Assembly: GCA_044352465.1 (NCBI GenBank)
Contig: JBILDU010000028.1
Coordinates: 1 to 32,062, forward strand
DNA from: Bdellovibrionota bacterium
GTDB lineage: Bacteria > Bdellovibrionota_C > UBA2361
Length of the DNA stretch: 32,062 nt
Direction: 5' to 3'
Part shown: positions 3,673 to 22,852 of the stretch, one piece after another
Numbering within the stretch: the stretch's first letter is position 1
Layout: every line of letters starts with the position of its first letter
Translations under genes and position numbers: made by a program
Notes under the pieces: generated by a model
Told to the model about the DNA's origin: nothing
The model's database searches: none
What the model saw: only the letters and a program-made list of their open reading frames with translations

Positions 3673-4524
3673 CTATGGGTTTAGGCCGACGAGCTTCTCG
3701 GAGGTGGCCGCAGGTCGCACGCCGCTATACACGACTACCCCCATAGGAATCTCAAGCCCACCAACGTGCTGCCACGGGTCAAGCCGGCGATCGACAGCCG
3801 CGCGAATCGCTTGGAGCTGCGCCTCACTCTGCGCTCGAAGTATCGCTCCGGTGCGCGCCGTGCCGTGCACGAAGGTATCAAAAAAAGCAGCCTTACTCGG
3901 CAGACTCCAGGTGAGCTCGTGGCTCTCAGACCGTACGTTCGTAAATCCTGCGGCTCTGAGACCTGCCTCCCCTACCGCAGGCTCCCCATATTTGAAAAAC
4001 GGTGGACCAGCGGGAAGTGCGACGTTTGGATCACCCGCCTCTTTAATCGATGCTAAGATAACCTCGAATCCACGCGATCGCTCTGGGGATTGCCATGCCG
4101 TAAAGACATACCGACCACCAGGGCGCAGAACCCGATAGGCTTCTCGAAATGCCCGCTCGGGATCGGACAGGTGCAGCACCCCAAGATTCATCGCGACGGC
4201 ATCGAAGCTCCCCTCAGGGAACGGTAGCGCGAGCGCATCGCCCGAGCGAAAATCGATCAGCGGAGATAACTGCCGGGCGACCACGAGCATCGATTCAGCA
4301 AAATCGAGACCAACAGGATGAGCGCCCCGGTGAGCGGCACCGGCAGCGAGCGCACCGGGGCCACACGCCACATCGAGGAGGCGTGTCCCGCGCTCAACTC
4401 GTAAAAGGTTCAAAAGCTGTGGAATAAGTACATCAGTCAGGGGGGCGAAACCACGTCGATACGCGTCCGCCGCGCCCTCCCATGCGGCATGTTCAAAACG
4501 ATCAAATTCAGCGGAGGACTTCAT
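3673..4524 (-). CDS. Class I SAM-dependent methyltransferase (UbiE-like / Methyltransf_11)
   Basis: LLDVACGPG motif I, GLDFAESML, GDALALPFPEGSFDAV and RVLRPGGRY. Likely start MKSSAEFDRFE at 4524. Confidence 0.9.
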   Translation of the reverse strand: MKSSAEFDRFEHAAWEGAADAYRRGFAPLTDVLIPQLLNLLRVERGTRLLDVACGPGALAAGAAHRGAHPVGLDFAESMLVVARQLSPLIDFRSGDALALPFPEGSFDAVAMNLGVLHLSDPERAFREAYRVLRPGGRYVFTAWQSPERSRGFEVILASIKEAGDPNVALPAGPPFFKYGEPAVGEAGLRAAGFTNVRSESHELTWSLPSKAAFFDTFVHGTARTGAILRAQSEAQLQAIRAAVDRRLDPWQHVGGLEIPMGVVVYSGVRPAATSEKLVGLNP

Positions 4525-4673
4525 ATCTCTCAGAAGGGGATACGCCATCCCGGCGCTCACCGCAACATGCCTCACAATCACCGCGCTTAAAGGCTCTTTT
4601 CTGAGCCTCTTCCATCAGACCTTTTCGTCGCCTGCCCATCTGTTAAGGGCTGAGGCTGTGATATACACCCTCT

Positions 4674-6209
4674 ATGAGCGGCGGAACCTCACCTGAATCA
4701 CCCTTCCCGAATGAACGCGTATCGTCCATCGAAGGACTCGACCTTTCCCTGCCCCGGCACCACCGTACCACCACCCAATTGGCCGTCACGCTTCTGTCAA
4801 AAGTGGAGGCGATCATCGGTCTGGTTGAACGAGCCGAGATCGAATACGGCCGGGAGCTGCGCGCTGTCCATCCCTCATTTCAGGCGAGCGCGCGGAACCT
4901 CATTCACTTTGATGCCCTCGCAAAACTCGACCTCACCGAGCTCAAACACGAGCTCAGGACCATCGGGCTTAATGGAGATATCACCGCACCTTTTGCTGTT
5001 TTGCCGACTTTACGATCAGTCCGCGATGTCCTTCAGATTATCTCGGGTCAGGAGATCGATCCGTCTCGTCTCGGTATCGAGCGAGAGGATATCGGCCGAC
5101 TTGAGAATCTCGCCGTTAAACACGCCGAACTGGGGCTCGGCCCAGCCCCGCAACTTCACCCAACTCGGGTGATGGTGAGTTCACACGGCGAGCTCGCGCG
5201 CGACTTCACCAAAGTGAAAGCGCTCGTCGAGGCGGGGATGAATATTCTAAGAATTAACTGCGCCCATGGAAACGCCGACGAATGGCGCCAAACCGCGCAA
5301 CTGGCGCGCCGAGCTGCGAACGAATGTGGCAAGCACCTGCGCATCATCTGCGATCTCGCCGGTCCCAAAGTTCGCACAGGGCCGCTCGAACACGACGAGC
5401 CGATCATTCTCCGGGTTGACGACACAATTCATGTGAAGGCCGCTGCGATATTAGGTCGAAATAAGGCGTGCCTCCCCGACGGAACGCCTCATTCTCCTGC
5501 GCAGGTGAGCTGCACCCTTCCCGAGGCCTTGAAGGTGGTGTCCGTTGGTGACCGAGTTCTGTTCGATGATGGCAACATCTCCGGTGTCGTTGAGGCGTGC
5601 GACGGAACAAGCGCCGCGGTACGGATCACCTATGTCCTGAACGACCACCACCCCCTCCTCGCAAAGAAAGGGATTAATTTCCCCGATACGGTGCTCAAAG
5701 TTCCCGCCCTTTCGGCTACGGACCGGGCCGCGCTCGCAACGGTGGTTGAAATCGCGGATATGGTAGCGCTCTCGTTCACCCGTTCAGCAGAGGATATCGC
5801 AGATCTTGAGACGGAGCTTACTCGCCTTCATGGACAACATCTCACGGTGGTCCTCAAGCCTGAAACTCCTCAGGCGATCGCGGATCTTCCCCGGCTTATT
5901 CTCGCCGCGATGCAGAGCCCGCCGATAGCTATTATGATTCCCCGCGGCGATCTGGCGGTGGAGCTCGGCTACGACAAGCTATCTCCAGCCCAAGAGAGGA
6001 TCTTAACCTACGGCGAGGCGGCACATATCGGGGTCATCTGGGCGACGCAGGTCTTGGAGAAACTCACCACGCTGGGAGTGCCTGCGCGCGCCGAAGTCAC
6101 TGACGTTATCGCAGGCTCACGCGCTGATTGCATCATGCTGCCGTACGGCCCCCACGTCGTGAAGACCGTAAAATTTATCGATAAGATCCTCCCCCACACG
6201 AACCGGTGA
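4674..6209 (+). CDS. pyk: Pyruvate kinase family protein (N-terminal extension, no C-terminal alpha/beta domain)
   Basis: GMNILRINCAHG, DLAGPKVRTG, VLFDDG, KGINFPD, LSF, RGDLAVE, WATQVLE and RAEVTD motifs. Confidence 0.85.
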   Translation: MSGGTSPESPFPNERVSSIEGLDLSLPRHHRTTTQLAVTLLSKVEAIIGLVERAEIEYGRELRAVHPSFQASARNLIHFDALAKLDLTELKHELRTIGLNGDITAPFAVLPTLRSVRDVLQIISGQEIDPSRLGIEREDIGRLENLAVKHAELGLGPAPQLHPTRVMVSSHGELARDFTKVKALVEAGMNILRINCAHGNADEWRQTAQLARRAANECGKHLRIICDLAGPKVRTGPLEHDEPIILRVDDTIHVKAAAILGRNKACLPDGTPHSPAQVSCTLPEALKVVSVGDRVLFDDGNISGVVEACDGTSAAVRITYVLNDHHPLLAKKGINFPDTVLKVPALSATDRAALATVVEIADMVALSFTRSAEDIADLETELTRLHGQHLTVVLKPETPQAIADLPRLILAAMQSPPIAIMIPRGDLAVELGYDKLSPAQERILTYGEAAHIGVIWATQVLEKLTTLGVPARAEVTDVIAGSRADCIMLPYGPHVVKTVKFIDKILPHTNR

Positions 6210-8511: not shown

Positions 8512-11301
8512 ATGGCCATTTCTCGTATTTTCCTCGGCTGGAATCACCAGCTCCTTCACGGAGCGCGGGACTATTTCGCCAAAAGATTTACGCACGGCCA
8601 AAAACTTGATCTGCAAGGAGTGACCGTCGTTTTCCCCGGTGCCCGCGCGGGACGACGGCTCACCGAACTCTTCGTCGAGTACGCGGAGCAGCACGAATTG
8701 ATGTTTTACCCCCCCCGCTCGATCACGGTGGGTGCCCTCCCCGAACTCCTCTATACCCCGACCGCCCCGCTTGCTGGAGATCTCGCCAGGATGATAGCGT
8801 GGTTCCAGGCACTCCAAGACTCCGACGATGTGCTTCAGGAGCTCATGCCAACGATCCCCTCGAAGGAGGACCTCGGTGCATGGCTCGGGCTTGTGCAACA
8901 AATGCTATCGCTCAGCGACGAACTAGGAGCCGCCGGACTCTCCTGCGCCGAGGTTGCTGCGCGTGCTCCGGAGCTCGATCTATTTCACGATGAACGGTGG
9001 GGAGCCCTCGCCGCGATCGAGGCGCGGTACGAGGCGAAGCTTCTACAGCACGGCACCATCGATCGGAACTCAGAGCGCTGTCGCGCCCTCGCTGAGGGAC
9101 GAATCACCGCTCCAGGGCCGCTCTTTCTGATCGGGGTCGCTGACATGAATCCCCTACTGCACGCGCTCCTCCGGACGGTGACGGGAGAGATCACGGCGTT
9201 AATATACGCTGATAAAGCGATCGCCGACCGCTTCGATGACCTCGGCTCGATCGCGGTCTCGAAATGGCTGGACGCACCGCTCCCGATTGCTCAGCTCACG
9301 CTCGAGGTCGCGCATGGCCCCCGGGATGCAGCCCAGGCAGTGCTTGATGTCATCGACCGTACGACCCCGCAGCCAAGCCCCGAAGAGGTCACGGTGGGGA
9401 TAGCTGATCCGACCCTGGGCCCCGTGATAGCGGAGACACTTGCCGCTGAAGGGCTGCCGACGTTTCGCGCTGAAGGAAGTTCGCTGACATCGACTGCGCC
9501 CCTTACTTTTCTCGATATCGCGGGGCGGTATGCCGCGAGTGGCTCCGCGCACGATCTGCGCTCACTCGTTCGCCACCCCGATGTACAGCAGTGGCTGCGT
9601 GAAGCGCCCGGAGTCGCGGCTCAGGAGCGGTGGATTTTGCTCGACTCAATCGGTGTGCTTGACCGCTATCACGAGCGACACCTGCAAGATCAGATCCGGG
9701 GCTCTGCGTATGGCGATTCATCGGTTGCCGAGTACGCTCGCCGCATCACCGGGCTTATCGATGAGCTCGTCGCCGAGCTTTTCGGTGCGAAGCGAGCGCT
9801 CTCTCAATGGGCAGAGGAGATCGCTGCAGTCGTGGCGCGTCTCTATGGCGAGCGCAAACTGAATCGTTTCGCCGAAAAGGATGCGCTCGTGCTCCACGGT
9901 ATCGAGGCGCTCCAAGGTGCACTCACTGAGATATTTCGATTCGATGCTCCCGAACTCCCACCGGTATCGGCGGCCGAAGCGATGCGACTTATCGTCAAGC
10001 TGCTCGGCTCTCGCACCGCTGAGTTGACCAAGAGCGGAGCTGCGATTGAGATCCTCGGGTGGCTTGAACTTCCTTTCGATGACGCCCGAGAGATCATCGT
10101 GACGGGCTTTAATGAGGGCTTTGTGCCGGAGTCTTTAAATAGCGACCCCTTTCTGCCGGAAAGCTTGCGACGCAACCTCGGCATTCTGCACAACGAACGG
10201 CGGTATGCTCGCGACGCATTTGCCCTCACCGCTCTCGCTGAGGGGCCAGCGCGGGTGACCCTCATTCAATCACGCCGCACCAGTTCAGGGGACCCGCTGA
10301 AGCCCAGCCGACTCCTTCTCGCGGGCGCGCCGACCGATGCTGCCCAAACCATCAAGTCATTTTATCGCCCTCTCGCCGACCGCGGGGAACCGGCCCACTC
10401 AACTGGACCAAGCGAATTTGTCGTTCCACCGCCACCAAAACGGCTCGATACACCGGTCACCGAGATGACGGTTTCCCAATTCAAAAGTTACCTCCAATGT
10501 CCGTATCGATTCTACCTCCGTCACCTTTTAGGGCTACAAAAGCACGACGATTCGGGATACGAGCTCTCGCCCCTCGATTTCGGAGTGCTCGCTCATACGG
10601 TCCTCAAACATTTTGCCGAGTCCGATGTGGTGGGTAGCACCGACGAACAGCGCATCGCGCGCTTTTTGGAGGAGGAGCTACGCCGCCAAGCGGAGCGAGC
10701 TTTCGGTCGTAGCGTCCTTCCCGTTGTGTTTATCCAGACCCGCCAGCTTCTGACCCGACTTCGTCATTTCGCCACCTGGCAGGCCGGCTGGAGCGCTGCG
10801 GGGTGGCGAATCGAAAAGACAGAGCTGGCAGTGACCGCCGGGGAAGTCCAGCTCGATCTCGGCGCGGGGCAGCCGATGACGGTCGTTGGACGACTTGACC
10901 GTCTTGATCGCAATTCGCGGACCGGCGACTGGGCGATCTTCGATTATAAGGTCTCCGACGGGGAACTCGATGCGCGACGGGCCCATCTGCATCCTTCAAA
11001 GGGATGGCTCGATCTCCAACTCCCGCTCTACCACCTCGCTTTTGAGAAGAAGGGCCTCGGGGAGTCGGCTCAGCTTGGGTATATCCTCCTGAGCGCCACG
11101 GGGAAGGAGCTTGTGTCGTTCGCGGACTTCACCCGGGCCGAGCTCGATGAGGCGGTTACCCGGGCGACCGATATCGCGCGGGCGGTGCGAGCGGAGATAT
11201 TCTTTCCCCCGACGAAGGAGCTGCTGCCCGGCGATGATTTCTCCGCATTATGTGGCATCGCCCAATTTCACCTCGGAGGAACTGACGGGGGGGCATCGTG
11301 A
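8512..11301 (+). CDS. addB: ATP-dependent helicase/nuclease subunit B-like (AddB; C-terminal PD-(D/E)XK nuclease)
   Basis: Helicase-like N-terminal scaffold, SQFKSYLQCPYRFYL, GRLDRLDR, IFDYK and LQLPLY. Overlaps the following helicase gene by 4 nt (GTGA). Confidence 0.85.
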   Translation: MAISRIFLGWNHQLLHGARDYFAKRFTHGQKLDLQGVTVVFPGARAGRRLTELFVEYAEQHELMFYPPRSITVGALPELLYTPTAPLAGDLARMIAWFQALQDSDDVLQELMPTIPSKEDLGAWLGLVQQMLSLSDELGAAGLSCAEVAARAPELDLFHDERWGALAAIEARYEAKLLQHGTIDRNSERCRALAEGRITAPGPLFLIGVADMNPLLHALLRTVTGEITALIYADKAIADRFDDLGSIAVSKWLDAPLPIAQLTLEVAHGPRDAAQAVLDVIDRTTPQPSPEEVTVGIADPTLGPVIAETLAAEGLPTFRAEGSSLTSTAPLTFLDIAGRYAASGSAHDLRSLVRHPDVQQWLREAPGVAAQERWILLDSIGVLDRYHERHLQDQIRGSAYGDSSVAEYARRITGLIDELVAELFGAKRALSQWAEEIAAVVARLYGERKLNRFAEKDALVLHGIEALQGALTEIFRFDAPELPPVSAAEAMRLIVKLLGSRTAELTKSGAAIEILGWLELPFDDAREIIVTGFNEGFVPESLNSDPFLPESLRRNLGILHNERRYARDAFALTALAEGPARVTLIQSRRTSSGDPLKPSRLLLAGAPTDAAQTIKSFYRPLADRGEPAHSTGPSEFVVPPPPKRLDTPVTEMTVSQFKSYLQCPYRFYLRHLLGLQKHDDSGYELSPLDFGVLAHTVLKHFAESDVVGSTDEQRIARFLEEELRRQAERAFGRSVLPVVFIQTRQLLTRLRHFATWQAGWSAAGWRIEKTELAVTAGEVQLDLGAGQPMTVVGRLDRLDRNSRTGDWAIFDYKVSDGELDARRAHLHPSKGWLDLQLPLYHLAFEKKGLGESAQLGYILLSATGKELVSFADFTRAELDEAVTRATDIARAVRAEIFFPPTKELLPGDDFSALCGIAQFHLGGTDGGAS

Positions 11302-14300
11302 CCGAACTCAACTCCCTTGCCCCTATCGTCATTCGCGCGAGTGCAGGTTCAGGCAAGACGTTCCAGCTCACCAATCGATTTTTAAGGTTACTCCTGCTAG
11401 GAGAATCGCCCGATCGAATTCTCGCGACGACTTTCACGCGCAAGGCTGCGGGAGAGATCGCCGAGCGTATCTTTACTCGGCTCAGCAACGCGACACTCGA
11501 TCCACGCAAAGCCCGCCAACTTGGTCACGAGCTTGGGTTACCCAAGCTCACCGAGCACGATGCGGGAGCGGCGCTGCGCAAACTGGTGCTGCACGAACAT
11601 CGGCTTAATATCTCGACCCTCGACAGCTTCTTTCACGGGATCGCCGCGGCTTTCGGCCTTGAGATCGGCCTTCAACCGGGGTGGAGCGTCGCCGATACCT
11701 TTGGTATCGAGCGACTTCTCGAGGACGGGGTGAAGCGCTTCTGTAGCGATGCGGAGTCCGACCGACTCTCCCTGCTTCTCCAACTCATGCGGGGTGGCAA
11801 GTCAGGGCGACGAGTGACCGACGATTTAAAAGCGCTGATCGGGGCGCTACTCGACCTCTATCGCACCACCGATCGCTCGACCTGGGAATGGCTCGATGGA
11901 CGAATCCCTCAACCGGCGCGACCACTCGCCGAACTTATCGAGACGATCGCGCTCTGCCCTCCGCCGCTCACCAAAGAAGGGACCCCGCGGAAGAGCTGGG
12001 CGGCGGCTCTGACGAAACTCGCGGCCGGAGCGCGGGAACGTGATTGGACAGCCCTCTTCGAAAATGGGCTGGTAAAAAAAATACTCGAGGGCGCGACCTC
12101 CTTCGATCGGGTGGCGATAGCGCCGACCCTGAGCACGGCGGTGGCGGGTCTCGTGGAACACGCGGCCGCTGAGCTCCTCCCGATACTCGCTGAGCAGAAT
12201 CGAGCCACCTACACCCTCATCGGCGAACTCGATACGATCATCGAGGAACTGAAGCGCGGGGCACGGGTGCTCGATTTCAGCGATGTAAAGTACCGCTTAA
12301 GCCGCTCGGCTACCCTTGGCGCCCTGGATGAGGTGTATTATCGGCTTGATACTCGCATCGCCCATATCCTCTTCGATGAGTTCCAAGACACCTCGCGCGC
12401 CGAGTGGTCCATCGTGGAGCCGATGGCAGCCGAGATCTTATCGAAGGCTTCGGGGGATCACTCGTTCCTTTGTGTCGGCGATACGAAGCAGGCGATCTAC
12501 GGCTGGCGGGGCGGGGTCGCTGAGATATTTAATCAACTAAAGCGGCGGTGGAATTTCATCGCCGAAGTGCCGCTGGTAGAAACGAGACGGTGCGCGGTCG
12601 CGGTCGTGGAGGCGGTCAACGTCGTATTCTCAGCGATCAGTTCGAACCCAGCGCTCAGCCGATATGCCGATGCGGCGGCAGCGTGGGGAGGTCGCTTCGC
12701 ACGGCACCAAACGACGCAGAGCGACCGTGCGGGATACGCGGCGCTCGAAGCTATCGACGGCGACTCAGCCGAGGAAACACGGAGCCACATCGAACTGCGG
12801 GCGATCGACATCGTCCGGGATCTCCTCCAGAAACCGGGGGAGTTTTCAATCGGCATTCTTACCCGCGGGAACGCCGCAGTTGGGCGGTTGATGTTTGCAC
12901 TCCAAGAGGCGGGGATTCGCGCGAGTGACGAGAGTAAGAGTTCGCTTCTCGACTCGCCCGCAGTCGAGGCGATGCGAGCGCTTCTGACGGTCGCCGATCA
13001 TCCTGCCAACACGATGGCGCGATTTCATTTGGCGACGTCACCGCTCGGTGGCGCACTTCAGTACACCGACTGGCAAAGCGATGTGGCGACCGAGGCGCTG
13101 GGACGACGGGTACGCGAATCGGTTGTGGCCAGGGGATTTGGCGCGACCATCCGTGCATTCGCTGATCTGCTGATGCCAGCCTGTAGCGCTCGGGACCGGC
13201 TCCGTCTATCGCAGTGCGTTGAGCAAAGCCACCTTTTCCGGGCGACGGAGCCGACTCGGCTCAGCGAATTTAATCGGTGGCTCGAACACGTGGAGCTCGA
13301 AGGCGGCAAGAGCGAGCAAGTTCGGGTGATGACTGTCCATCAATCGAAGGGGCTTGAGTTCGATGTCGTTCTTTTAATCGATCTCGACGGGGCGATGATT
13401 AAGCGGGGGAGCTTCGATGCGGTCCCGATTCTCACCGCTTCCGATGACCCGACCGAGCCACCCACGCGGGTATCGCGGCGCCCCCGAGCGGAGATCATCG
13501 CGCTGAATAACGAGCTTCGTGGGATGGTTGAATTCGGTGAGGCCGAGGCGGTGAAGGATAATTTAAGTGTCCTCTATGTGGCGATGACTCGCGCACGCTA
13601 CGCGCTCTATATGCTTGTGGGCACGAACGATCGCGAAACCTCCCTCGGCAAGGTCCTCAGAAACGTCCTGGGAGGTGGAGACGCACCGGGACTACGATAT
13701 TCAACAGGATCGGCCAAATGGTTCGAACGCTACGAGCCTGAAAAGGGGGAGGTCGCCGAGCCGCGCACGCCACGCAGCGGGTCCGTGACCCTTGCCCCCT
13801 CCCCCACTCGGCGGCGACGGGGGTTGTTACGCGAGACACCGTCGGGGCGGGAAGGTGGTCACGAGGTCGCGGTCAAAGAGCTCCTCCGCATCACCGGAGG
13901 TGGGGCGGCGGATTATGGGCGACTGATCCACCGACTCTTTCAACAGGTTGAATGGGTCGAGGAGCTTCCGAGTGAGGCTGAGTTGCTGACGCTCCTGGAG
14001 CGGGATTTCGTCGGAGTCGAGAAGCCAGGGGACACGGTGCGGGAGTTCCTGGGGTTGCTGGAGGCGAAAGCGGTCACGGCGGAACTCAGTCGGACACGTT
14101 ACGCGATATGGGGTGCGGACTCCCTTGAGGTACTTCGAGAGCAGTCGTTCGCGGTTCGAGAGGGCGACGCCGTCATGACCGGTACCTTCGACCGGCTCGT
14201 CATCGGTCGACGCAACGGTGTGGTCGTAGCCGCTCATATTATCGACTACAAGACCGATCGGGTGAGGGACGAGGTCGGCATGACGACGCGAGTGCGGTAT

Positions 14301-14453
14301 TATACCCCTCAGATCGAGGCCTATATCGACGCGGCGATACAATTTACTCGCTTGCCGCGGGAAGCGATCGAAGCCACGCTGCTGTTTGTCACCCCAGGGA
14401 TGACCCATTATTTTAGCCCATCGATGACTCGCAACCGGCAGAGAAAGGAGTAG
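11298..14453 (+). CDS. addA: ATP-dependent helicase/nuclease subunit A (AddA; UvrD-type helicase plus RecB-like nuclease)
   Basis: Walker A ASAGSGKT, TFTRKAAGE, STLDSF, DEFQDTS, VGDTKQAIYGWRG, MTVHQSKGLEF, LYVAMTRA, and C-terminal GTFDRL...IIDYKT...Q..AY. Confidence 0.92.
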   Translation: MTELNSLAPIVIRASAGSGKTFQLTNRFLRLLLLGESPDRILATTFTRKAAGEIAERIFTRLSNATLDPRKARQLGHELGLPKLTEHDAGAALRKLVLHEHRLNISTLDSFFHGIAAAFGLEIGLQPGWSVADTFGIERLLEDGVKRFCSDAESDRLSLLLQLMRGGKSGRRVTDDLKALIGALLDLYRTTDRSTWEWLDGRIPQPARPLAELIETIALCPPPLTKEGTPRKSWAAALTKLAAGARERDWTALFENGLVKKILEGATSFDRVAIAPTLSTAVAGLVEHAAAELLPILAEQNRATYTLIGELDTIIEELKRGARVLDFSDVKYRLSRSATLGALDEVYYRLDTRIAHILFDEFQDTSRAEWSIVEPMAAEILSKASGDHSFLCVGDTKQAIYGWRGGVAEIFNQLKRRWNFIAEVPLVETRRCAVAVVEAVNVVFSAISSNPALSRYADAAAAWGGRFARHQTTQSDRAGYAALEAIDGDSAEETRSHIELRAIDIVRDLLQKPGEFSIGILTRGNAAVGRLMFALQEAGIRASDESKSSLLDSPAVEAMRALLTVADHPANTMARFHLATSPLGGALQYTDWQSDVATEALGRRVRESVVARGFGATIRAFADLLMPACSARDRLRLSQCVEQSHLFRATEPTRLSEFNRWLEHVELEGGKSEQVRVMTVHQSKGLEFDVVLLIDLDGAMIKRGSFDAVPILTASDDPTEPPTRVSRRPRAEIIALNNELRGMVEFGEAEAVKDNLSVLYVAMTRARYALYMLVGTNDRETSLGKVLRNVLGGGDAPGLRYSTGSAKWFERYEPEKGEVAEPRTPRSGSVTLAPSPTRRRRGLLRETPSGREGGHEVAVKELLRITGGGAADYGRLIHRLFQQVEWVEELPSEAELLTLLERDFVGVEKPGDTVREFLGLLEAKAVTAELSRTRYAIWGADSLEVLREQSFAVREGDAVMTGTFDRLVIGRRNGVVVAAHIIDYKTDRVRDEVGMTTRVRYYTPQIEAYIDAAIQFTRLPREAIEATLLFVTPGMTHYFSPSMTRNRQRKE

Positions 14454-14455
14454 TG

Positions 14456-14674
14456 ATGGAGATTCCGTACGAGCGATTGAGCGCCGAGGTGCTGCACAGC
14501 CTGATCGAGCATTTCGTTTTGCGTGAAGGAACCGATTACGGACACGGAGAGTACTCGCTTGAAGAGAAGGTCGCGACGGTAAAGCGACAGCTCGAGCGGG
14601 GTGAGGCGATCATCGTCTTTAATGCCGAGGATGAGAGCTGCGATATCAAGATGCGGCGAGGCTTTGGAGGCTAA
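14456..14674 (+). CDS. yheU: YheU (UPF0270) family protein
   Basis: IPYERLSAEVL.SLIEHFVLREGTDYG..E.SLEEKV..V..QL.RGEA.IVF is the YheU signature. AGGAG RBS upstream. Confidence 0.9.
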   Translation: MEIPYERLSAEVLHSLIEHFVLREGTDYGHGEYSLEEKVATVKRQLERGEAIIVFNAEDESCDIKMRRGFGG

Positions 14675-14755: not shown

Positions 14756-15433
14756 ATGAATACTGAAATTATAGCGATTGAAGATGAGCGCCCCCGCGAA
14801 AAGCTATGCCGACGGGGTGCGCATGCCCTCACCGACACCGAACTTGTTACTATCGCCCTCGGGACCGGAATTCCCGGGACCAGTGCCCGCGAGATCGCGA
14901 CCGAAATCATCGCGGTCCTTGATAGCCAACGGGGAGCGGTCGAAATCGCAGCACTTGAAGCGATCAAAGGGGTGGGGCAAGCAAAGGCAACGCTCATCGC
15001 TGCGATGATCGAATTTTCGCGGCGCCGCATCCGACCAGAGGGGGTAAAGATACGCAGCGCTGGGGATGTGCTGCCACTCCTTCATCACTTCGGTGACAGG
15101 AAGCAGGAGCATTTTATCTGTATTACTTTAAACGGTGCGCACGAGGTAATCGCTACCCGGGTCATTACGGTGGGACTTCTTAATACCGCGCAGGTCCATC
15201 CCCGCGAAGTGTTTAGCGATGTGCTCATCGATCGAGCGGCGGCGGTAATCTTCGCCCACAACCACCCCTCAGGTGACGTGACCCCGAGCACTGAGGATCT
15301 CCGAGCGACCGAACTTCTGTGTACCGCCGGGGACACGCTTGGCATAGCGGTACTTGACCACATCATCTTTAGCCGGCGTGGATTTACGAGTTTAGAGGAG
15401 AAAGGGCTCATACGCAGAAAGGGGCGTGGCTGA
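14756..15433 (+). CDS. radC: RadC family protein (JAB/MPN domain)
   Basis: ERPREKL...AL.D.EL, HhH-like KGVGQAKA, VHPREVF, HNHPSG..TPS.ED and LDHII. Confidence 0.95.
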   Translation: MNTEIIAIEDERPREKLCRRGAHALTDTELVTIALGTGIPGTSAREIATEIIAVLDSQRGAVEIAALEAIKGVGQAKATLIAAMIEFSRRRIRPEGVKIRSAGDVLPLLHHFGDRKQEHFICITLNGAHEVIATRVITVGLLNTAQVHPREVFSDVLIDRAAAVIFAHNHPSGDVTPSTEDLRATELLCTAGDTLGIAVLDHIIFSRRGFTSLEEKGLIRRKGRG

Positions 15434-15453
15434 GCGTACGCAGAGAGGGCGAA

Positions 15454-15606
15454 TTAGGCGGCTTTGGCGTATCTTTGTTTACAGATATTGAACGCCTGTC
15501 CCCGGGTGAGCCCGGCGCTCCGGAGAAACCGGTAATCGGTCACAAAGAGACGCCGAAGCGAACCGTTCAGTAAACGACAGATTCGACGCGACTCTCGATT
15601 GTTCAT
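15454..15606 (-). CDS. Small basic hypothetical protein (50 aa), not in ORF track
   Basis: ATG..TAA frame MNNRESRRICRLLNGSLRRLFVTDYRFLRSAGLTRGQAFNICKQRYAKAA. AGAGAA purine tract 4 nt upstream with an AT-rich leader. Occupies an otherwise empty gap. Confidence 0.5.
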   Translation of the reverse strand: MNNRESRRICRLLNGSLRRLFVTDYRFLRSAGLTRGQAFNICKQRYAKAA

Positions 15607-15820
15607 AACGTTCTCTATAAAAAACCTGCCTGTTTTCGAGGCCTGCCGAACACGATCTCTGCCCCCTTATCCGCTCCGGGCCCCCGGATGATTCCAAATC
15701 GGCCGCAAGTCGTTGAAAAGACCGTCGGTCCCCATCGCGATGAGCTTAATAATTCGATGCTTTTTTGGCCCACTTTGAAGCGGACCGGGAACGATCTTTC
15801 GGCGACCGGTCAACCGTCGG

Positions 15821-17722
15821 TTACACCGCGATCTTCCTCAGCAATCCAACTGCGGCATCCACTGGCCGACGTAAGGTATCGAAGTGAGCGAGGTCGAGAT
15901 CGCCCGGGTTTATGGTCTGAGCCGCCACCATCGCCTGTAGCTGACGAATGGTCGGGTCGTAAAACGGTTGGTGACCGGGCGCACCGGGAACGTTTAAGAC
16001 CTCGATAATCGGCCGCTCTTCCTTGGAGGCATAAATGCCGTGAATCGAACCGGCGAGCTGACTATCAAGTAAGATTTGGTCGAACGCGAATGCCTCCGCA
16101 TGACCACCGGGGGCGAGGACGAACACACGCTTACTACCGATACTCGCGGCAACCGCGGTCTTCGTTTCAACGTTCAGCAATGAGGGGAGGACGGTCTCAG
16201 TGTACCCACCGGCGAGCTTGCGCGCTGGGATCTCCTCGCCGGTATAGGCAAGCTGAACCCGCACAAGCTCACTCGCAGAACGGGTGTTGGTGCGCTGTTC
16301 GTACGCGAGCATCTTCTCGGCCCAGAGCTCACTCCACCGCCCCGCCATGCCATCGGTACCTTTTCCGTCGATAACGATGGTGTAGCCTTTCTGGATCGCC
16401 CCCTCGATGAGCGCCTCGGAGTAGGCTTGCAGTTGCTCGTTCCAAATCGATTTCGCCGAACCACACAGGTAGATCGCCGGTTTCGTTGAAAGCCGCTTGA
16501 TCGTCGCCATGGTCTCGTAGCGCTCCGCGGCACCGTTCGCTGCAAGATCCTTCAAATATACCTCCGCAGCATCAACCCCCTCACGCCCCCACCGCGCCAT
16601 GGTCTCTCTGAGGTGATACACCGTACGGTGGGTCGCAACGATATTGTCGAGCAGAGCTAAAAACTTGTTGTCGACATCGCCCACGATATCACGCGGCCCC
16701 ATGCCACTGTCCATCATCGCATTGACAGCTTTGTTAGCAAAAACTCGGTACTCTGGAGTAATAACCCGGGAGCGAACATGCACGAGGTTCTCGGCATAGA
16801 CGCTTCCAATATACTCGACCGCTTCATCGAGACGCTCCTCGCCGAAGTGGTGGACCTGCGAGTCTACGGTCTTAATCGCACCACATCGCTCCATCTCGCG
16901 GATCTGCTCCAGTGTTCCCTCCCAGAAATTCCCACCGTCTGGCAGCCGCGAGGAAACCATCACGATTTGGGACGGGGGACGGTTTGCATCGAAGACTCCG
17001 ATCGGGCCCTTGTCCCTCAGTTGACGATTCACGAACTGGAAGCGGGCCTCAAACATGGTGCCGAGTCCGCCCGGCTCCATGAGTTGCACCAACTGCCGCC
17101 CCACCGCATGGAGGGCGAGGGTTCGATTCAGCCACGAATCTTGCGGCTCTGAGGCTCTGCCGTGTCTACTCAGGTCAGCGGGAGGCTCATAGTTCGCATG
17201 CTCCCCCATCAGCTTCAAAGTGACAGTCGCGATTTTAGCCGGCGCTTCGATACCGTGGATATTTTTGTAGGTATCTCGCGCGAGACGGAACGCCCGGATC
17301 GACTCTCCCATCGCGCCGGTCTCAGCTCCACCACACGTCAGACCGACGTCCATACCAACAAGCACCCGCCCCAGTTTCGCATTGAATCCCTTCATGGGGC
17401 CGGTGACCGCCTTATCGCGAGCGGTGCCGTTTACACAGATCATCGGCTTATCTTTGTATTCGTCGAGAAGATGGTAGATATCTTGGGTGTTAAAGTGGTG
17501 GTGGAGGGATTTCAGCATGCTCGCATCGAGCACCTTCATCGCATTGTTTCCCCCTAAGAGGAGGAGCGCGTACTCCGAGAAAACTTCAGCCACATTGAGG
17601 CGCCGATCCCCCATCGAGCTACCGCCGAATTCATTGGTAGCGGGAGAATCACCACGATCTGTCTTCATCGGATTTTGGAAATCACCTGACATTTCGATAC
17701 GCCTCTCTTTCACACGGGCCAC
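15821..17722 (-). CDS. Tandem LOG-family (SLOG superfamily) protein with two LOG-like domains
   Basis: Domain 1: ICVNGTAR...LGRVL...LTCGGAETGAMG...WLNRT...PGGLGTMFE...FWEGTL. Domain 2: IYLCGSAK...KGYTIVIDG...GMAG...FVLAPGGHAEAFA...PII.VLN...FYDP. Start is either GTG 17722 or ATG 17692. Confidence 0.75.
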   Translation of the reverse strand: MARVKERRIEMSGDFQNPMKTDRGDSPATNEFGGSSMGDRRLNVAEVFSEYALLLLGGNNAMKVLDASMLKSLHHHFNTQDIYHLLDEYKDKPMICVNGTARDKAVTGPMKGFNAKLGRVLVGMDVGLTCGGAETGAMGESIRAFRLARDTYKNIHGIEAPAKIATVTLKLMGEHANYEPPADLSRHGRASEPQDSWLNRTLALHAVGRQLVQLMEPGGLGTMFEARFQFVNRQLRDKGPIGVFDANRPPSQIVMVSSRLPDGGNFWEGTLEQIREMERCGAIKTVDSQVHHFGEERLDEAVEYIGSVYAENLVHVRSRVITPEYRVFANKAVNAMMDSGMGPRDIVGDVDNKFLALLDNIVATHRTVYHLRETMARWGREGVDAAEVYLKDLAANGAAERYETMATIKRLSTKPAIYLCGSAKSIWNEQLQAYSEALIEGAIQKGYTIVIDGKGTDGMAGRWSELWAEKMLAYEQRTNTRSASELVRVQLAYTGEEIPARKLAGGYTETVLPSLLNVETKTAVAASIGSKRVFVLAPGGHAEAFAFDQILLDSQLAGSIHGIYASKEERPIIEVLNVPGAPGHQPFYDPTIRQLQAMVAAQTINPGDLDLAHFDTLRRPVDAAVGLLRKIAV

Positions 17723-17787
17723 GATTGCAGGCCCCCTTCTCTTATATAGATCTCTGCATCCTTAACATACTGTTTGGGGCGAAATTC

Positions 17788-17814
17788 TTTTCGACGAGAC
17801 TCGCTAATGCCTTA
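17788..17814 (-). promoter_or_regulatory. Candidate sigma28-type promoter for the tandem LOG gene
   Basis: Minus strand reads TAAG-N15-GTCGAAAA (consensus TAAA-N15-GCCGATAA), about 65 nt upstream of GTG 17722. Confidence 0.35.
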
Positions 17815-17913
17815 TAAATACAGCTTTTTTACTCATGATCCGCTCTTCAAGCCCATTTTGACTTACTCTTTTCAACGCGTTACGAAGGAAGGAAAGTTTT
17901 CAAGGAAGGCGCG

Positions 17914-18921
17914 ATGTATACCCTCACCAAACTCTCCCCCAGCTCGACCGATGCGGTCTGTTACCGGGCGAACCGTCAATTTCCCCTCGAGGGCGTGTCT
18001 GAGGTGATTATCTCAACCCCGGAATCGCGGGCCATCTGTAACGATCCGTGCGTCATGGGGATCGACTACACCCGCAAGCTCGCCGGAGCCTCGTCAAAGG
18101 CATTGAGAGCGCTGCAGGAGATCGGCCTTTTCTCCGGTCGAGAGCGATCGACCACGGTGCTGACGATTTTGCGAGGAGGGCTCAATTTCGGACTCCGCGA
18201 GGCGCTCGCCGATGCTTTTCAGTGGAACAACCACGGCACGTGGTATATCAGCGCGCAACGTCAGCTCTCCGATCCGAAAAGCGGTGCTTGGGAGATCGTC
18301 GAGGATTCGTACACAAAGATGTCGCCACACGGTGAGATGGATATCGTCTTCGGCGATGTCGTTGCCACCGGAACGAGCTTAAAGCACGGCCTTATGAAGC
18401 TCGCCGAAACCCTCACCCGTTCGTGCCGCTATAACTCGATCACTTTTTTCACCATCGGTGGTGCGGTCTCGGGAGAGATCCTGGCTGAATGGCGAAAGCT
18501 TATCGAATCCCGCCAAGGCTCACCCCTGAAAGCGACGGTGGTGTATTTCGAGGGGATCTTCGGAGTTGCGGGCCCCCGTACGCCGGTCACGATAAAGCTC
18601 GATGGCACCGATCTTCTCCGGCGCGATGGAGCGATGGCACCCGAATTCGTTGAATCGCAATACGAGAATCCATCGTATCCACTTGAGCGGTGCACCATCT
18701 ACGATGCTGGTTCACGCGCTTTTCACGTGCCGGAATATATCGAAGACGTCGTTGATTACTGGCGGCAGGTCAAAACTCATGCGGAGAACGGCACGACGTT
18801 TGAAGCGCTTCTCCACGAGCGGTGCCCCGATGTGGATGTCACCCGATTCGGCCCGCGCGATTTAAAAAATCTCGCGGATACCCACCTGAGCAATCTTGAG
18901 AAAAAGCTCGGGGGGAACTAA
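17914..18921 (+). CDS. Phosphoribosyltransferase-fold protein, uracil PRTase-like
   Basis: TVLTILRGGLNF resembles the UPRTase ILRAG loop. IVFGDVVATGTSL resembles the PRPP-binding loop. AAGGAAGG RBS upstream. Longer than a canonical Upp (about 210 aa). Confidence 0.65.
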   Translation: MYTLTKLSPSSTDAVCYRANRQFPLEGVSEVIISTPESRAICNDPCVMGIDYTRKLAGASSKALRALQEIGLFSGRERSTTVLTILRGGLNFGLREALADAFQWNNHGTWYISAQRQLSDPKSGAWEIVEDSYTKMSPHGEMDIVFGDVVATGTSLKHGLMKLAETLTRSCRYNSITFFTIGGAVSGEILAEWRKLIESRQGSPLKATVVYFEGIFGVAGPRTPVTIKLDGTDLLRRDGAMAPEFVESQYENPSYPLERCTIYDAGSRAFHVPEYIEDVVDYWRQVKTHAENGTTFEALLHERCPDVDVTRFGPRDLKNLADTHLSNLEKKLGGN

Positions 18922-18993
18922 CGAGCTCTCCCAATCAAAGTGACCCCGCCCTCTGCGGGAGTGGCGCGGGGAGCAGCGATATCGGGTCAGTAC

Positions 18994-19025
18994 AAAAGCG
19001 CCCCCCAATGAGTTCCGAGGGGCGC
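18994..19025 (-). terminator. Probable intrinsic terminator for 19048..19569
   Basis: GCGCCCC (18998-19004) / GGGGCGC (19019-19025) stem. The AAAA at 18994-18997 gives a short U tract on the minus strand. Confidence 0.5.
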
Positions 19026-19047
19026 CCCAAAGAGCGTGAGCGCGCCT

Positions 19048-19569
19048 CTACTGACCGAGCGACCCCGCTAAAGCTTTCGCTTTTGCGATATCAGCTCGAG
19101 ATGGGATCCTCTTCTGAATAAGATCATCTGAGCCCCGGATCGTTCGCTTTGTCGGAGCAACGTAGTTTACGGCGCAATTGGTTCCCCAGTCGTTGAGAAG
19201 CGCAACCATACCGCTTCCTGAGACACCACCACCAGCAAGAAGGACCGCCAAGTCAGCACCACCAACCGTTCCGTCGTTGTTATAATCGTGCGGACAGGTC
19301 TTACAAGATTCGCCGAGACGGGATTGGACGATCGCCAGATCCGCACCGTTTATCAGACCATCGACGTAGAGGTCGGAATGGATGTTCGCCCTGTACGCGG
19401 CGCCACGGGACCCGAATGCGTTTAGAACCGAGACCATATCGTGGATATCGACGACTCCGTCCCCGTTAACGTCGCCGAGACATTTCGGAGCGGACTGCGC
19501 CGCCGCTGAGCTAACCGACACCAACGTACAGAGTCCGAGCATGAGTACCGTTTTTATACACAACCGCAT
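19048..19569 (-). CDS. Secreted dockerin-like (EF-hand-type Ca2+-binding) repeat protein
   Basis: Signal peptide ending AAA-Q. Three repeats DVNGDGVVDIHD, DLYVDGLINGAD and DYNNDGTVGGAD with L..FG/WG endings and flanking Cys. GAGG RBS upstream. Confidence 0.8.
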   Translation of the reverse strand: MRLCIKTVLMLGLCTLVSVSSAAAQSAPKCLGDVNGDGVVDIHDMVSVLNAFGSRGAAYRANIHSDLYVDGLINGADLAIVQSRLGESCKTCPHDYNNDGTVGGADLAVLLAGGGVSGSGMVALLNDWGTNCAVNYVAPTKRTIRGSDDLIQKRIPSRADIAKAKALAGSLGQ

Positions 19570-20028: not shown

Positions 20029-20544
20029 CTACGGCGCTTTCAGGATATTCGCAATCTCCTGAGCCGCTTTCTTCGCTTTTGAATTAGGATTGGTTGTGCT
20101 TAGTAATGCGGGAGATGCCCCCGATGTTTTCTTGCAGTCACGACCCCACTCATTTAGCAACGAAGCCATGTTGGCGCTATCAGCCACCCCGGAGCTAAGA
20201 AGGATGCCAAGATCCGCTGAGTTAACGGTGTTATCGCCGTTGAGGTCAAATGAACACAAATCGACAATGGGGGGGCATGGTCCCCAGTTCTGCAAAACGT
20301 AATTGGTATCCAACGCGTTGACTACGAGGTCGGGGACAACATCGACAGAAGCACCAGTGAGTTTGAAATGCCTATTGATCGCCCTTCCCTTCAAACCGAA
20401 TGCGGCCAGAACGTTCCCTAAGTCCTCGCTATCGACGGTGCCACTTGCGTCCGTATCTCCTGGACAAGCCTGCGCCTGCGCCGTCCCCGCCACTAAAAGG
20501 CTACAAAGCCCCAACATCAAACTCGCGCACTTAAAAACCCCCAT
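20029..20544 (-). CDS. Secreted dockerin-like repeat protein (paralog of 19048..19569)
   Basis: Signal peptide ending AQA-Q. Repeats CPGDTDASGTVDSEDL..VL.AFG, DVVPDLVVNALD...NWG and DLNGDNTVNSADL.ILL...LLNEWG. GGGAGG RBS upstream. Confidence 0.8.
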   Translation of the reverse strand: MGVFKCASLMLGLCSLLVAGTAQAQACPGDTDASGTVDSEDLGNVLAAFGLKGRAINRHFKLTGASVDVVPDLVVNALDTNYVLQNWGPCPPIVDLCSFDLNGDNTVNSADLGILLSSGVADSANMASLLNEWGRDCKKTSGASPALLSTTNPNSKAKKAAQEIANILKAP

Positions 20545-20821: not shown

Positions 20822-22852
20822 CTACCGCACCCGAAACTGCGCATACGGACTCTTCCCGGCGACACCGGACACGGAGTACCTCACCCGATACGTAGCCACG
20901 CTCAGATTTCGCATGACCACCGTCCGTCGCGCCGTTTTCACGGTCTTGACGATCTTTCCCCGTCTCGAAAACTCAACCGCGTATCTTTGGCTCGCGGAGA
21001 TGAAGGGGAGCGTAACCGTTACGGTGCGCTTCTTCACCAAAACCTTGGGCTTCGTGAGCACCGGCTTCCCGCTAGCACCCGGCGTCGGGGTCGCCGATGG
21101 AACAGCAGCGACAGCACCGATAGTCTTGCCATCGTGCCCAGCGTTCGCGAGGCGTGGATTTTGGGGTCGAAATCCCTCCCGCACGTAAAGACGCAGACTC
21201 TCCAGGGTGTAGCTCGGATTAAAACCACTCGGATCGTTACGCTTTGCAAGCTCCACCACCGCATTCGCCACCGTCCCGGGGCCGCCGAGAGACTTATCCC
21301 AGCTGGCTATATCCCGGGTCGGATCAACGAACTGGGGATCGACGTTTTGGTCGTGTACCCCCGGTGTGCCGACACTGAACTCGAGATCGGCGTAGTTGGC
21401 AATAAGTTTGAAACCGGTGTTGTAGTCAAGCGCGGTGGCCCCAACCAGATCAACCACAGCTTCGTTCGGGCCGGAGTCGTACATGAGGAAACCGCGCGGC
21501 GTCGTGTCCCAAGCTATGTTGCTCCGGAAACTCTTCACCATCCCGGTGTGTCCCGGGTAGGTCTCCCCAACCGAGGTTCCTTGGATACCAGCGATGTAGG
21601 TGTTGTGGTCGGCCGCAATAAAAGCGTTCGGGCCACCTAGCGCTGAAAAGAGCGTTCCACTGGTCGAGCCCCCTTTATTGGGTAAGACGATGCAGTTTAG
21701 GACGGTCAATGTCTGGGGTGTCGCTGGATTCGCCACCCCAATGCAGTCGCCGTTATCATCGGTGCCGGTGTACTCGAAGATATCTCCGTCGATAACACTC
21801 GAACGCCAGGTCAAGGCCTGCAGAAAATGGGGGTTATAATCAGGAATTCCGGGCGCTGGATCGATCAGCCAATAATTATTGGTCGAATCGGCAGCGACAA
21901 TCTTCTCAAGGGTCGTGCGGTTATAGATAAAATTCCGATCAAAGATATCCCACCCTTCATTCACGTCGTCGGGAGAGACCGCATACGCATTGAGAAAGAT
22001 GTTGTCGTTAATAATCGCTCGACGCGACGCAAAAAAGTTAATCGGCTTATCAAAGACGTTTCCCTCAATTATCCGCGCTTTGCCAGCGGCTGGCGCAGTG
22101 TAGAAATTCACCTCCGCGCTCACCGGACTCACGGTGTTTCGAAAAGTGGAGTTTTTAAGGGTAAACGAAGCATCGGGGCCCACGGTGTAGCGCGTACGCA
22201 ACTCGCCACCACCATTAAAGACGACGTTCGTGAGCGCGAACTCCCCCGTCCCCGTCACCGAAGTCAACACCGCCGGTATCGTCGCATCGCCCAGGCGCGA
22301 GAGTTCACAGAAACCACCGCGCACAAGCCCGGCACCGAGAAAATCTCCACCGGTGATCGCCGCGGGGGCCGCGCCGTTCGTTGAAACCGAGCGGATAGCG
22401 CAGCGAGCCTGGGAGGTACCTTGAAGAAGAAGTACCGCAGCTTGGTCGTGGGCCGTGCCGATTCGCAGTGCGTAACGGGTGGTCGTCGGAGCTGGTGCCT
22501 GAGAGGCGTCGAACTCCACGATCGAGTTGCCCACAAGGGTCATCGGAGCGTCGTTCAGGGCGATATCTCCCCGAACGGTAAGCTTCGCTCCAGGATTCAC
22601 GGTGAGGGCTCCCGTCGGGCTCACCGCGATCGCCGGAAGTGCATTAGTCGCCGGACTGCTCCCGATAGTCGTGTCACGATCAATATTCACAGGATGGCTG
22701 ATCTGAGCCCGCGCTCCAGCTGCGGGTACTATCCCCCCCGCCCACGTCGCGGGGGACGACCAGTTGCCAGGTTGCACCGTCACCACCTGCGCGAAGGAGA
22801 GCGCGGGGGCAAAAAGAGCAAGAAGGGGAAGCTTACGCACGAATTCAAACAT
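20822..22852 (-). CDS. Large secreted protein: G8-like N-terminus, probable parallel beta-helix, Pro/Thr linker and basic C-terminal beta domain
   Basis: Signal peptide (..ALSFA-Q). GNWSSPATWAGGIVP G8-like start, N/D-rich beta-helix-like repeats, VDPQFVDP, PSATPTPG linker and a K/R-rich final ~80 aa. Confidence 0.8.
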   Translation of the reverse strand: MFEFVRKLPLLALFAPALSFAQVVTVQPGNWSSPATWAGGIVPAAGARAQISHPVNIDRDTTIGSSPATNALPAIAVSPTGALTVNPGAKLTVRGDIALNDAPMTLVGNSIVEFDASQAPAPTTTRYALRIGTAHDQAAVLLLQGTSQARCAIRSVSTNGAAPAAITGGDFLGAGLVRGGFCELSRLGDATIPAVLTSVTGTGEFALTNVVFNGGGELRTRYTVGPDASFTLKNSTFRNTVSPVSAEVNFYTAPAAGKARIIEGNVFDKPINFFASRRAIINDNIFLNAYAVSPDDVNEGWDIFDRNFIYNRTTLEKIVAADSTNNYWLIDPAPGIPDYNPHFLQALTWRSSVIDGDIFEYTGTDDNGDCIGVANPATPQTLTVLNCIVLPNKGGSTSGTLFSALGGPNAFIAADHNTYIAGIQGTSVGETYPGHTGMVKSFRSNIAWDTTPRGFLMYDSGPNEAVVDLVGATALDYNTGFKLIANYADLEFSVGTPGVHDQNVDPQFVDPTRDIASWDKSLGGPGTVANAVVELAKRNDPSGFNPSYTLESLRLYVREGFRPQNPRLANAGHDGKTIGAVAAVPSATPTPGASGKPVLTKPKVLVKKRTVTVTLPFISASQRYAVEFSRRGKIVKTVKTARRTVVMRNLSVATYRVRYSVSGVAGKSPYAQFRVR

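Follow-up and report, generated by a model that had tools for sequence, protein, structure and literature searches.

A divergent gene pair for a fused LOG/pseudo-LOG protein and a UPRTase-like protein in Bdellovibrionota, a candidate pyrimidine salvage and recycling pair

The object of this analysis was a 32,062-nucleotide stretch (positions 1 to 32,062, hereafter the window) of contig JBILDU010000028.1 from the assembly GCA_044352465.1 of a Bdellovibrionota bacterium (GTDB lineage Bdellovibrionota_C; UBA2361), in which two genes are transcribed divergently and flank a common spacer. One of them, designated LOG2 (15821..17722, minus strand, GTG start), encodes a 633-aa protein with two LOG-like halves, and the other, designated PRT (17914..18921, plus strand, ATG start), encodes a 335-aa protein with a phosphoribosyltransferase (PRTase) fold closest to that of uracil phosphoribosyltransferases (UPRTases). 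A preliminary description of the locus reported two such head-to-head genes separated by an AT-rich spacer of about 190 bp; both are in the list of open reading frames (ORFs) at exactly these positions, and the spacer (17723-17913) is 191 bp long with 42.9% GC versus 58.0% for the whole window. The observation itself is confirmed, and the interpretation then attached to it is partly supported. On balance, LOG2 and PRT probably constitute a salvage and recycling pair for pyrimidine bases and nucleotides, with cytosine or a close analogue as the favoured base. From folds, motifs, and gene neighbourhoods we infer what each of the two proteins does, which substrate is involved, and that the spacer has a role in regulation. 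Cytosine or a close analogue is favoured because PRT is coupled to a CodB-type permease, coexists with upp in genomes where CodA was not found, and is accompanied by an extra cmk-like paralogue.

The LOG2 protein scored below the curated thresholds of both LOG families, with 15.9 bits for PF03641 (cut-off 27) and 15.6 bits for TIGR00730 (cut-off 96.35). A precomputed PF03641 match was present in 4 of its 17 homologues, and the protein atlas gave SLOG-superfamily leads only, with no more specific name. The fold was recognized in the AlphaFold model (predicted local distance difference test score, pLDDT, 83.6; predicted template modelling score, pTM, 0.86; 17 sequences), in which residues 1-47 are disordered. 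The N-terminal LOG domain (residues ~91-313; 16784..17452, minus strand) contains the motifs GGAETGAMG (131-139) and PGGLGTMFE (217-225), as well as E179 and R200. By way of the predicted model, this domain matched LOG, YgdH, and type-II LOG structures with Z-scores of 17-19.4 and root-mean-square deviations (rmsd) of 2.3-4.2 Å over 176-206 residues, while alignments to PpnN covered 294-307 residues (Z 16.6-19.4); the LOG structures superposed on it were 1wek, 9us2, 5wq3, 5zbl, and 3qua. Foldseek matches of the LOG2 model to LOG-type structures had E-values from 2.8e-6 to 1e-4. Residues E179, R200, and E225, which would be the ribose-binding Glu, the catalytic Arg, and the catalytic Glu closing the PGGxGTxxE motif, respectively, are each unchanged in all 17 LOG2 sequences. 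According to the available part of a preprint (bioRxiv 10.1101/2025.04.13.648610), a Glu/Arg/Glu triad is essential in enzymes of this type, being E223/R241/E264 in PpnN and E74/R92/E115 in PaLOG.

A helical linker (residues ~314-410; 16493..16783, minus strand), with helices at 323-341, 353-381, and 383-410 according to DSSP of the model, leads to a C-terminal pseudo-LOG domain (residues ~411-633; 15824..16492, minus strand) carrying DGKGTDGM (452-459), E497, K521, and PGGHAEAFA (538-546). LOG2 is an internal duplication, since its two halves align with each other in hhalign (97.5% probability, E 6.6e-12, 200 columns), and it is a LOG plus a pseudo-LOG because the second copy has no catalytic Glu: the position of this water-activating residue is occupied by Ala546 in all 17 sequences. 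Of the remaining C-half positions, E497 is likewise unchanged in all 17, and position 521 is Lys or Arg. Residues ~403-633 of the model resembled SLOG-like domains found in TRPM channels (Z 12-14). The tandem LOG proposed in the preliminary description therefore stands as regards the fold and the duplication, while the second copy lacks its catalytic Glu. We read LOG2 as a single-chain LOG "dimer" with one putatively live site and one dead site. The gene may begin at Met11 (ATG at 17692), giving 623 aa, rather than at the GTG codon; its closest homologues, P0001-P0004, are 623-626 aa long, and P0002-P0004 start with MSGE or MSGD.

The PRT protein was modelled with a pLDDT of 92.1 and a pTM of 0.91 (41 sequences). 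Fourteen UPRTase entries matched the model with Z-scores of 12.3-15.4 over 181-199 residues (rmsd 2.4-3.6 Å), while other PRTase classes (adenine, orotate, and hypoxanthine-guanine-xanthine phosphoribosyltransferases and PyrR) reached a Z-score of at most 8.7, with 7.3-8.0 for PyrR. The UPRTase-like fold suggested earlier was thus borne out, and structure prediction and Foldseek, proposed at that time as a check, gave the predicted fold for both proteins. No PRTase family of Pfam, including PF14681 and PF00156, matched PRT at E ≤ 1; the best NCBIfam PRTase match was the HGPRTase model TIGR01203 (E 0.026), and the protein atlas provided no functional name. The UPRTase core comprises approximately residues 15-275, to which a C-terminal helical extension (~275-335) is added. 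The active-site motifs are ILRGGLNFGLRE (85-96), SAQR (113-116), VFGDVVATGTSL (145-156), and IYDAGSRAF (262-270). Within them ILRGGLNF, the loop SAQR, the loop VFGDVVATGTS for binding of phosphoribosyl pyrophosphate (PRPP), and IYDAGSRAF are invariant or nearly so in the 41 PRT sequences. R87-G88-G89, R116, D148, T152-G153-T154, and D264-A265-G266 are invariant in 41 of 41, as are A151 and S155 of the PRPP-binding loop. The ILRGG motif, the PRPP loop GDVVATGTS with its single Asp, and the DAGxR-type loop presumably correspond to motifs of Upp, and we take IYDAGSRAF to resemble the C-terminal base-binding loop of UPRTases.

Homologues of LOG2 numbered 17 proteins among 5.8 billion clusters, and the LOG2 family profile had 66 matches at E ≤ 0.001, including 22 at E ≤ 1e-30, among 1.84 billion representatives. 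For PRT, 1020 homologous proteins and 245 genome loci were found. Genome neighbourhoods were taken from the best 80 of these 245 genome matches, which span Bdellovibrionota, Thermodesulfobacteriota, Bacteroidota, Verrucomicrobiota, Lentisphaerota, Riflebacteria, and other phyla. Of 124 genomes from the phylum to which the window belongs, 45 contained PRT and 6 contained LOG2 orthologues, these six all carrying PRT as well; five further genomes contained only remote LOG2 relatives (22-33% identity), none of them adjoining PRT. LOG2 orthologues, which are 37-73% identical to the window protein across seven relatives, were located head-to-head with PRT in all 8 assessable loci, namely the window, L095, L096-L099 (corresponding to L006, L005, L011, and L008), L002, and L003. 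The sequence of L001 stops at the LOG2 gene, so adjacency is not assessable there. A coincidental adjacency, which the preliminary description had left room for, is contradicted by this result, and the comparison of neighbourhoods across genomes that it called for came out in favour of the pair. The coupling is one-sided: LOG2 always occurs with PRT, while most PRT genes have no LOG2, which is missing, for instance, from each of the 72 PRT loci numbered L012 to L083. On a quick IQ-TREE phylogeny of 76 PRT rows (excluding truncated rows shorter than 280 aa, six loci with split ORFs, and L001, which contains no PRT), seven LOG2-linked PRTs and three congeners without LOG2 formed one clade with a stem of 0.87 and a support of 100 in the Shimodaira-Hasegawa-like approximate likelihood ratio test (SH-aLRT). 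Because a single PRT clade unites LOG2-linked loci with LOG2-less congeners, the data fit one recruitment of LOG2 followed by losses in some lineages. A sister family of tandem LOG-like proteins, ~680-710 aa long and 22-28% identical to LOG2, was found in the same phylum at L100, L101, and L102 (genomes G050, G049, and G114, respectively); its genes do not adjoin PRT, and proteins P0145-P0152 resemble the same group.

The ORFs of 83 loci and of the window were clustered, and the clusters were named with Pfam and NCBIfam. The commonest neighbour of PRT was an NCS1 permease assigned to the CodB equivalog NF008241 with 567-572 bits (cut-off 326). Of 82 PRT loci, 40 carried the permease gene downstream of PRT and in the same direction, an orientation seen in 40 of 40; of the 75 loci whose downstream flank extends for 1300 bp or more, 38 carried it. 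The core gene order of the LOG2-linked clade is udk, LOG2, divergent PRT, and a cmk-like gene. The uridine kinase (210-223 bits, cut-off 180) is encoded beside LOG2 in L003, L005, L006, and L008; L007, which has no LOG2, carries its gene in the equivalent position. The cmk-like gene follows PRT in L003 and L005-L009 (L003:2350-3234, L005:5544-6428, and relatives). Its product of ~294 aa has an N-terminal extension of ~44 residues and scored 98-108 bits on the cytidylate kinase model TIGR00017 (cut-off 135.55); a canonical cmk (176-190 bits) was also present in 4 of 5 genomes tested. The LOG2 slot of L007 is occupied by a gene on the same strand as PRT (4193-5683, plus) for a 496-aa hydrolase that can be assigned only to the HAD-IA superfamily, below the threshold; it may be a nucleotidase substituting for the nucleosidase. 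Only two longer proteins containing PRT were found. In the metagenomic protein P0199 (871 aa), a PRT-like domain (residues 127-374, 38% identical to the window PRT) is joined to a C-terminal PF01048 half of the nucleoside-phosphorylase/AMP-nucleosidase superfamily, and this fusion, a single example, is predicted to represent another base-releasing partner for the PRT family. The second protein has an uninformative, probably mis-called N-terminus. Other genes recur around the pair as well: a gene with DUF520 (YajQ-type nucleotide-binding) and an unannotated gene for a ~304-aa protein adjoin udk in L003 and L005-L008 (L005:1-1132, L006:825-2451, L007:1697-3120, L008:1463-2877, and L003:7207-8654), and genes for a DUF4286 protein and a transporter of the major facilitator superfamily come after the cmk-like gene in the LOG2-linked clade.

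Canonical upp was found in addition to PRT in all 6 genomes tested, that is, in the genome from which the window originates and in 5 of 5 genomes with codB-PRT. In the window's own genome, which is 94.9% complete, the full-length canonical UPRTase scored 258.7 bits, and pyrG, pyrF, canonical cmk, and two ordinary LOG proteins were also encoded. As this genome encodes pyrG, pyrF, and upp, pyrimidine auxotrophy was rejected as an explanation of the pair. Cytosine deaminase of the Escherichia coli type (CodA) was found in none of the five codB-PRT genomes and was not found in the window's own genome, yeast-type deaminase with the cytidine deaminase fold not having been searched for; a repeat search, in which the E. 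coli control scored 978.9 bits, returned no CodA in four codB-PRT genomes at E ≤ 0.001.

The spacer contains an element of the form GACTTAC-N9-CAACGCGTTACGA(A/G)G (17860-17888, plus strand), ~30-55 nt upstream of the PRT start, which includes the 8-bp palindrome AACGCGTT. It is common to six LOG2-linked loci (the window, L095, L005/L097, L006/L096, L008/L099, and L003), with one mismatch each in L008/L099 and L003, and is not present in L002, L011, or the loci with PRT only. Copies of the motif occurred in 5 of 76 PRT loci, and the copy in L030, with two mismatches and at position -189, is probably due to chance. In the window's own genome the exact 13-mer of the element exists as a single copy, four copies with one mismatch showing no pattern, so its use as a regulon marker was rejected. 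The element is locus-specific and could be a promoter or an operator. A sigma-70 consensus scan yielded no promoter-like sites in the spacer, a result that is uninformative, as is the detection of two terminator-like sites, both within genes and fewer than in shuffled sequences. A regulatory RNA in the spacer was rejected, since Rfam gave no matches at E ≤ 1 over 15300-19300.

Taken as a salvage and recycling pair, the two proteins would act in opposite directions. The N-half of LOG2, with Glu179, Arg200, and Glu225, would split a pyrimidine nucleoside 5'-monophosphate (NMP) hydrolytically at its N-glycosidic bond into the base and ribose 5-phosphate, as judged from analogy with PpnN and LOG enzymes, and the dead C-half, with its ribose-binding Glu and Lys/Arg, could either complete the active-site pocket or bind a regulatory nucleotide. 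PRT, given its PRPP loop and loop Arg, is predicted to join a pyrimidine base with PRPP to form an NMP, so that cytosine and PRPP could yield CMP and then CDP. Divergent transcription from the shared spacer with its palindromic element would set breakdown against re-synthesis. Members of the genus Bdellovibrio reportedly take up intact NMPs.

A bolder and more doubtful possibility, to which we give well below even chances, is that PRT is a cytosine phosphoribosyltransferase, an enzyme that reportedly has been identified in no organism so far. Cytosine imported by CodB or released by LOG2 from CMP or dCMP would then be converted to CMP without deamination, and a dedicated cytidylate-kinase paralogue would produce CDP. 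We know of no map of pyrimidine salvage with a direct route from cytosine to CMP. The available parts of PMC8842674 and PMC8497467 (2021) state that cytosine phosphoribosyltransferase is known in no organism, while minor activity of this kind in Giardia extracts is mentioned in the part of PMC2187579 that was available. Neither the PRT family nor a codB-PRTase operon was found described in the accessible portions of the literature on cytosine phosphoribosyltransferase and codB permeases. If true, this would mean a route into cytidine nucleotides bypassing CTP synthase, and LOG2, as the matching cytidylate nucleosidase, would provide the first case of a LOG/pseudo-LOG heterodimer within a single chain. 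PRT is a concrete, widespread, and easily expressed candidate with the operon logic of permease, PRTase, and kinase. Even if the base were uracil, PRT would represent a large unannotated UPRTase-like family missed by Pfam, and LOG2 a new single-chain LOG/pseudo-LOG architecture in which a homodimer is fused and one site is silenced. The PRT family and the LOG2 architecture would improve the annotation of many genomes.

Several findings weigh against assigning the pair to pyrimidine salvage and recycling. Combined, the reactions of LOG2 and PRT amount to a futile cycle consuming PRPP, and the genome concerned already holds upp, pyrG, pyrF, cmk, and two ordinary LOGs, while no udk or cmk-like paralogue was found in it. 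The window's own locus has no udk, cmk-like gene, or codB, and the only NCS1 permease of the genome (30% identity) is encoded on a different contig; moreover, the label "cytosine permease" is a computed equivalog assignment. In about half of the PRT loci, codB and LOG2 are both missing from the vicinity. PRT has no LOG2 gene beside it in L004, L007, and L009, where the upstream flank extends for 3.1 kb or more, and in a fourth congeneric genome, G096, PRT is present with no LOG2 match; LOG2 is dispensable in these congeners. Both proteins scored under every curated family threshold, the PRT family profile had no significant match to a solved structure among the sequences of the Protein Data Bank (best E 0.26), and the related genomes in the locus sample are non-independent samples.

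The alternative closest to conventional metabolism is that PRT is a second UPRTase, that the CodB-like permease carries uracil, and that LOG2 is a general PpnN-like nucleosidase acting on NMPs for pool homeostasis. It would agree with UPRTase being the nearest fold of PRT by a clear margin, with the presumed likeness of IYDAGSRAF to the UPRTase base-binding loop, and with the action of PpnN-type enzymes on several NMPs, including assays with IMP and GMP in the available part of the preprint (bioRxiv 10.1101/2025.04.13.648610). We regard it as unlikely, though worth keeping in view, since canonical upp stands alongside PRT in every genome tested, since PRT has no PF14681 match at E ≤ 1 and its family, with over 1000 members, is distinct and deeply conserved, and since it is accompanied by a cytosine-permease equivalog and a paralogue of cytidylate kinase. 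The doubling of existing functions in the relatives, where udk and a cmk-like paralogue under the cmk cut-off occur, could instead point to a parallel pathway that serves an unusual or modified pyrimidine, such as cytosine or uracil with a methyl group or another modification, released from foreign nucleic acid, in which LOG2 would strip the base from a modified NMP and PRT with the kinase paralogues would handle the non-standard base and nucleotide. The extreme rarity of LOG2 (the 66 profile matches noted above) and the stem of the LOG2-linked PRT clade, 0.87 changes per site with an SH-aLRT of 100, would fit such a functional shift. On the contrary, no modification enzyme is conserved nearby, a TylF-type methyltransferase being encoded in L011 only, as a single case, and the active-site motifs of PRT are identical within and beyond the LOG2-linked clade, which makes this pathway quite improbable.

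That the adjacency is merely inherited synteny in one lineage, with LOG2 and PRT functionally unlinked, could be argued from the fact that the LOG2-linked loci are all confined to a single clade within one phylum and that the window's genome has no other salvage neighbours at the locus. However, the head-to-head arrangement was kept in 8 of 8 loci though LOG2 identity to the window protein drops to 37-47% and the flanking genes are wholly different (between the window and L001 on one side and L002, L011, and L003-L008 on the other), and a conserved element is retained in the shared spacer; this explanation thus has very little probability. Conflict systems are known to contain SLOG and PRTase domains, and the preliminary description accordingly counted signalling and defence, in addition to salvage, among the possible roles of the pair. 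In a role of this kind, the SLOG-like domain would sense or degrade a signal nucleotide, and the PRTase-like protein would be an effector or signal maker. Apart from that premise, the patchy distribution of LOG2 within the genus, the likeness of the C-half to ligand-sensing TRPM SLOG domains (Z 12-14), and atlas feature matches to LSDAT/SLOG clusters at 0.76-0.83, which are leads only, are in line with such a role. PADLOC-DB, however, contained no family matching LOG2 or PRT at E ≤ 1, and no integrase, transposase, restriction, or toxin genes were found within the 32-kb window. The context in the window is one of housekeeping genes, the neighbours elsewhere are udk, cmk, and a permease, and PRT is vertically conserved across many phyla. 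Of the roles listed earlier, salvage is supported by udk, the cmk paralogue, and the cytosine permease, while the defence reading was rejected because PADLOC is empty for both proteins and the window is free of mobile or defence genes; we consider defence or nucleotide signalling extremely improbable. Finally, PRT might be a non-enzymatic, PyrR-like protein that regulates the divergent LOG2 gene or the permease gene downstream in response to a pyrimidine nucleotide, but hardly any weight can be given to this reading. PRTase-fold regulators exist, PyrR structures are among the weaker PRT matches (Z 7.3-8.0), and PRT adjoins the conserved palindromic element, but none of the 41 sequences shows any change in the PRPP loop, the loop Arg, or the UPRTase-type motifs, the UPRTase scores are nearly double those of PyrR, Rfam revealed no RNA element, and the palindrome is missing from most PRT loci (motif copy in 5 of 76).

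The surroundings of the pair in the window also agree with the preliminary description, which had placed it after radC: RadC (PF04002, E 1.3e-37) is encoded upstream of the pair at 14756-15433. On the other side, two paralogous proteins of ~170 aa with hydrophobic N-termini and dockerin/EF-hand-like calcium-binding repeats are encoded on the minus strand (19048-19569 and 20029-20544). A similar dockerin/EF-hand-like pair, with an 813-aa ORF between its members, lies downstream of PRT in L010 (3258-4686). Farther along the window, a minus-strand ORF of 676 aa (20822-22852) with a signal-peptide-like N-terminus was unique in the neighbour clustering and had no Pfam match at E ≤ 1e-4. Before RadC, the region 8512-14674 encodes an AddB-like PD-(D/E)XK nuclease (929 aa), a UvrD/PD-(D/E)XK helicase-nuclease (1051 aa), and a UPF0270 protein (73 aa), and the gene order UvrD-UPF0270-RadC-LOG2 is the same in L001. 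The other genes of the window include those for pyruvate kinase, malic enzyme, the AddAB-like helicase-nuclease, RadC, release factor RF3, a short-chain dehydrogenase/reductase, and glycosyltransferases.

Comparison with known systems places both proteins at some distance from their nearest counterparts. With Thoeris ThsA-type SLOG modules LOG2 shares the SLOG superfamily, and its C-half resembles a ligand-binding, non-catalytic SLOG domain; unlike these modules, the pair has no PADLOC match, no Sir2, TIR, or transmembrane domain, and no defence-island context, and its neighbours are salvage enzymes. The N-half of LOG2 is similar to PpnN (YgdH) and LOG (PF03641/TIGR00730) in its Rossmann-like fold, the GGxxxGxMG and PGGxGTxxE motifs, and the Glu/Arg/Glu triad, and the predicted chemistry is the same, namely, conversion of an NMP to the base and ribose 5-phosphate. 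Unlike LOG, LOG2 has two LOG-like halves per chain, a helical linker of ~100 residues between them, and a second half that is dead (Ala546). In known LOGs the active pocket is formed by homodimerisation, and Arg99 and Glu122 are catalytic, according to the available part of PMC4979012, whereas in LOG2 both halves are in one chain; PpnN carries unrelated flanking domains, which LOG2 does not. Upp (PF14681) is nearest to PRT in fold by a wide margin, yet PRT is ~125 residues longer, being extended by a beta strand at the N-terminus and by helices at the C-terminus and carrying an insertion at ~215-258, and does not match PF14681 at E ≤ 1. In addition, all 6 genomes tested encode Upp as well as PRT, and the permease partner of PRT is of the cytosine rather than the uracil type. 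Like codBA of E. coli, the codB-PRT loci combine a CodB-equivalog permease with a candidate cytosine-metabolising enzyme in a two-gene operon, but the partner is a PRTase-fold protein encoded upstream of codB instead of the amidohydrolase CodA encoded downstream.

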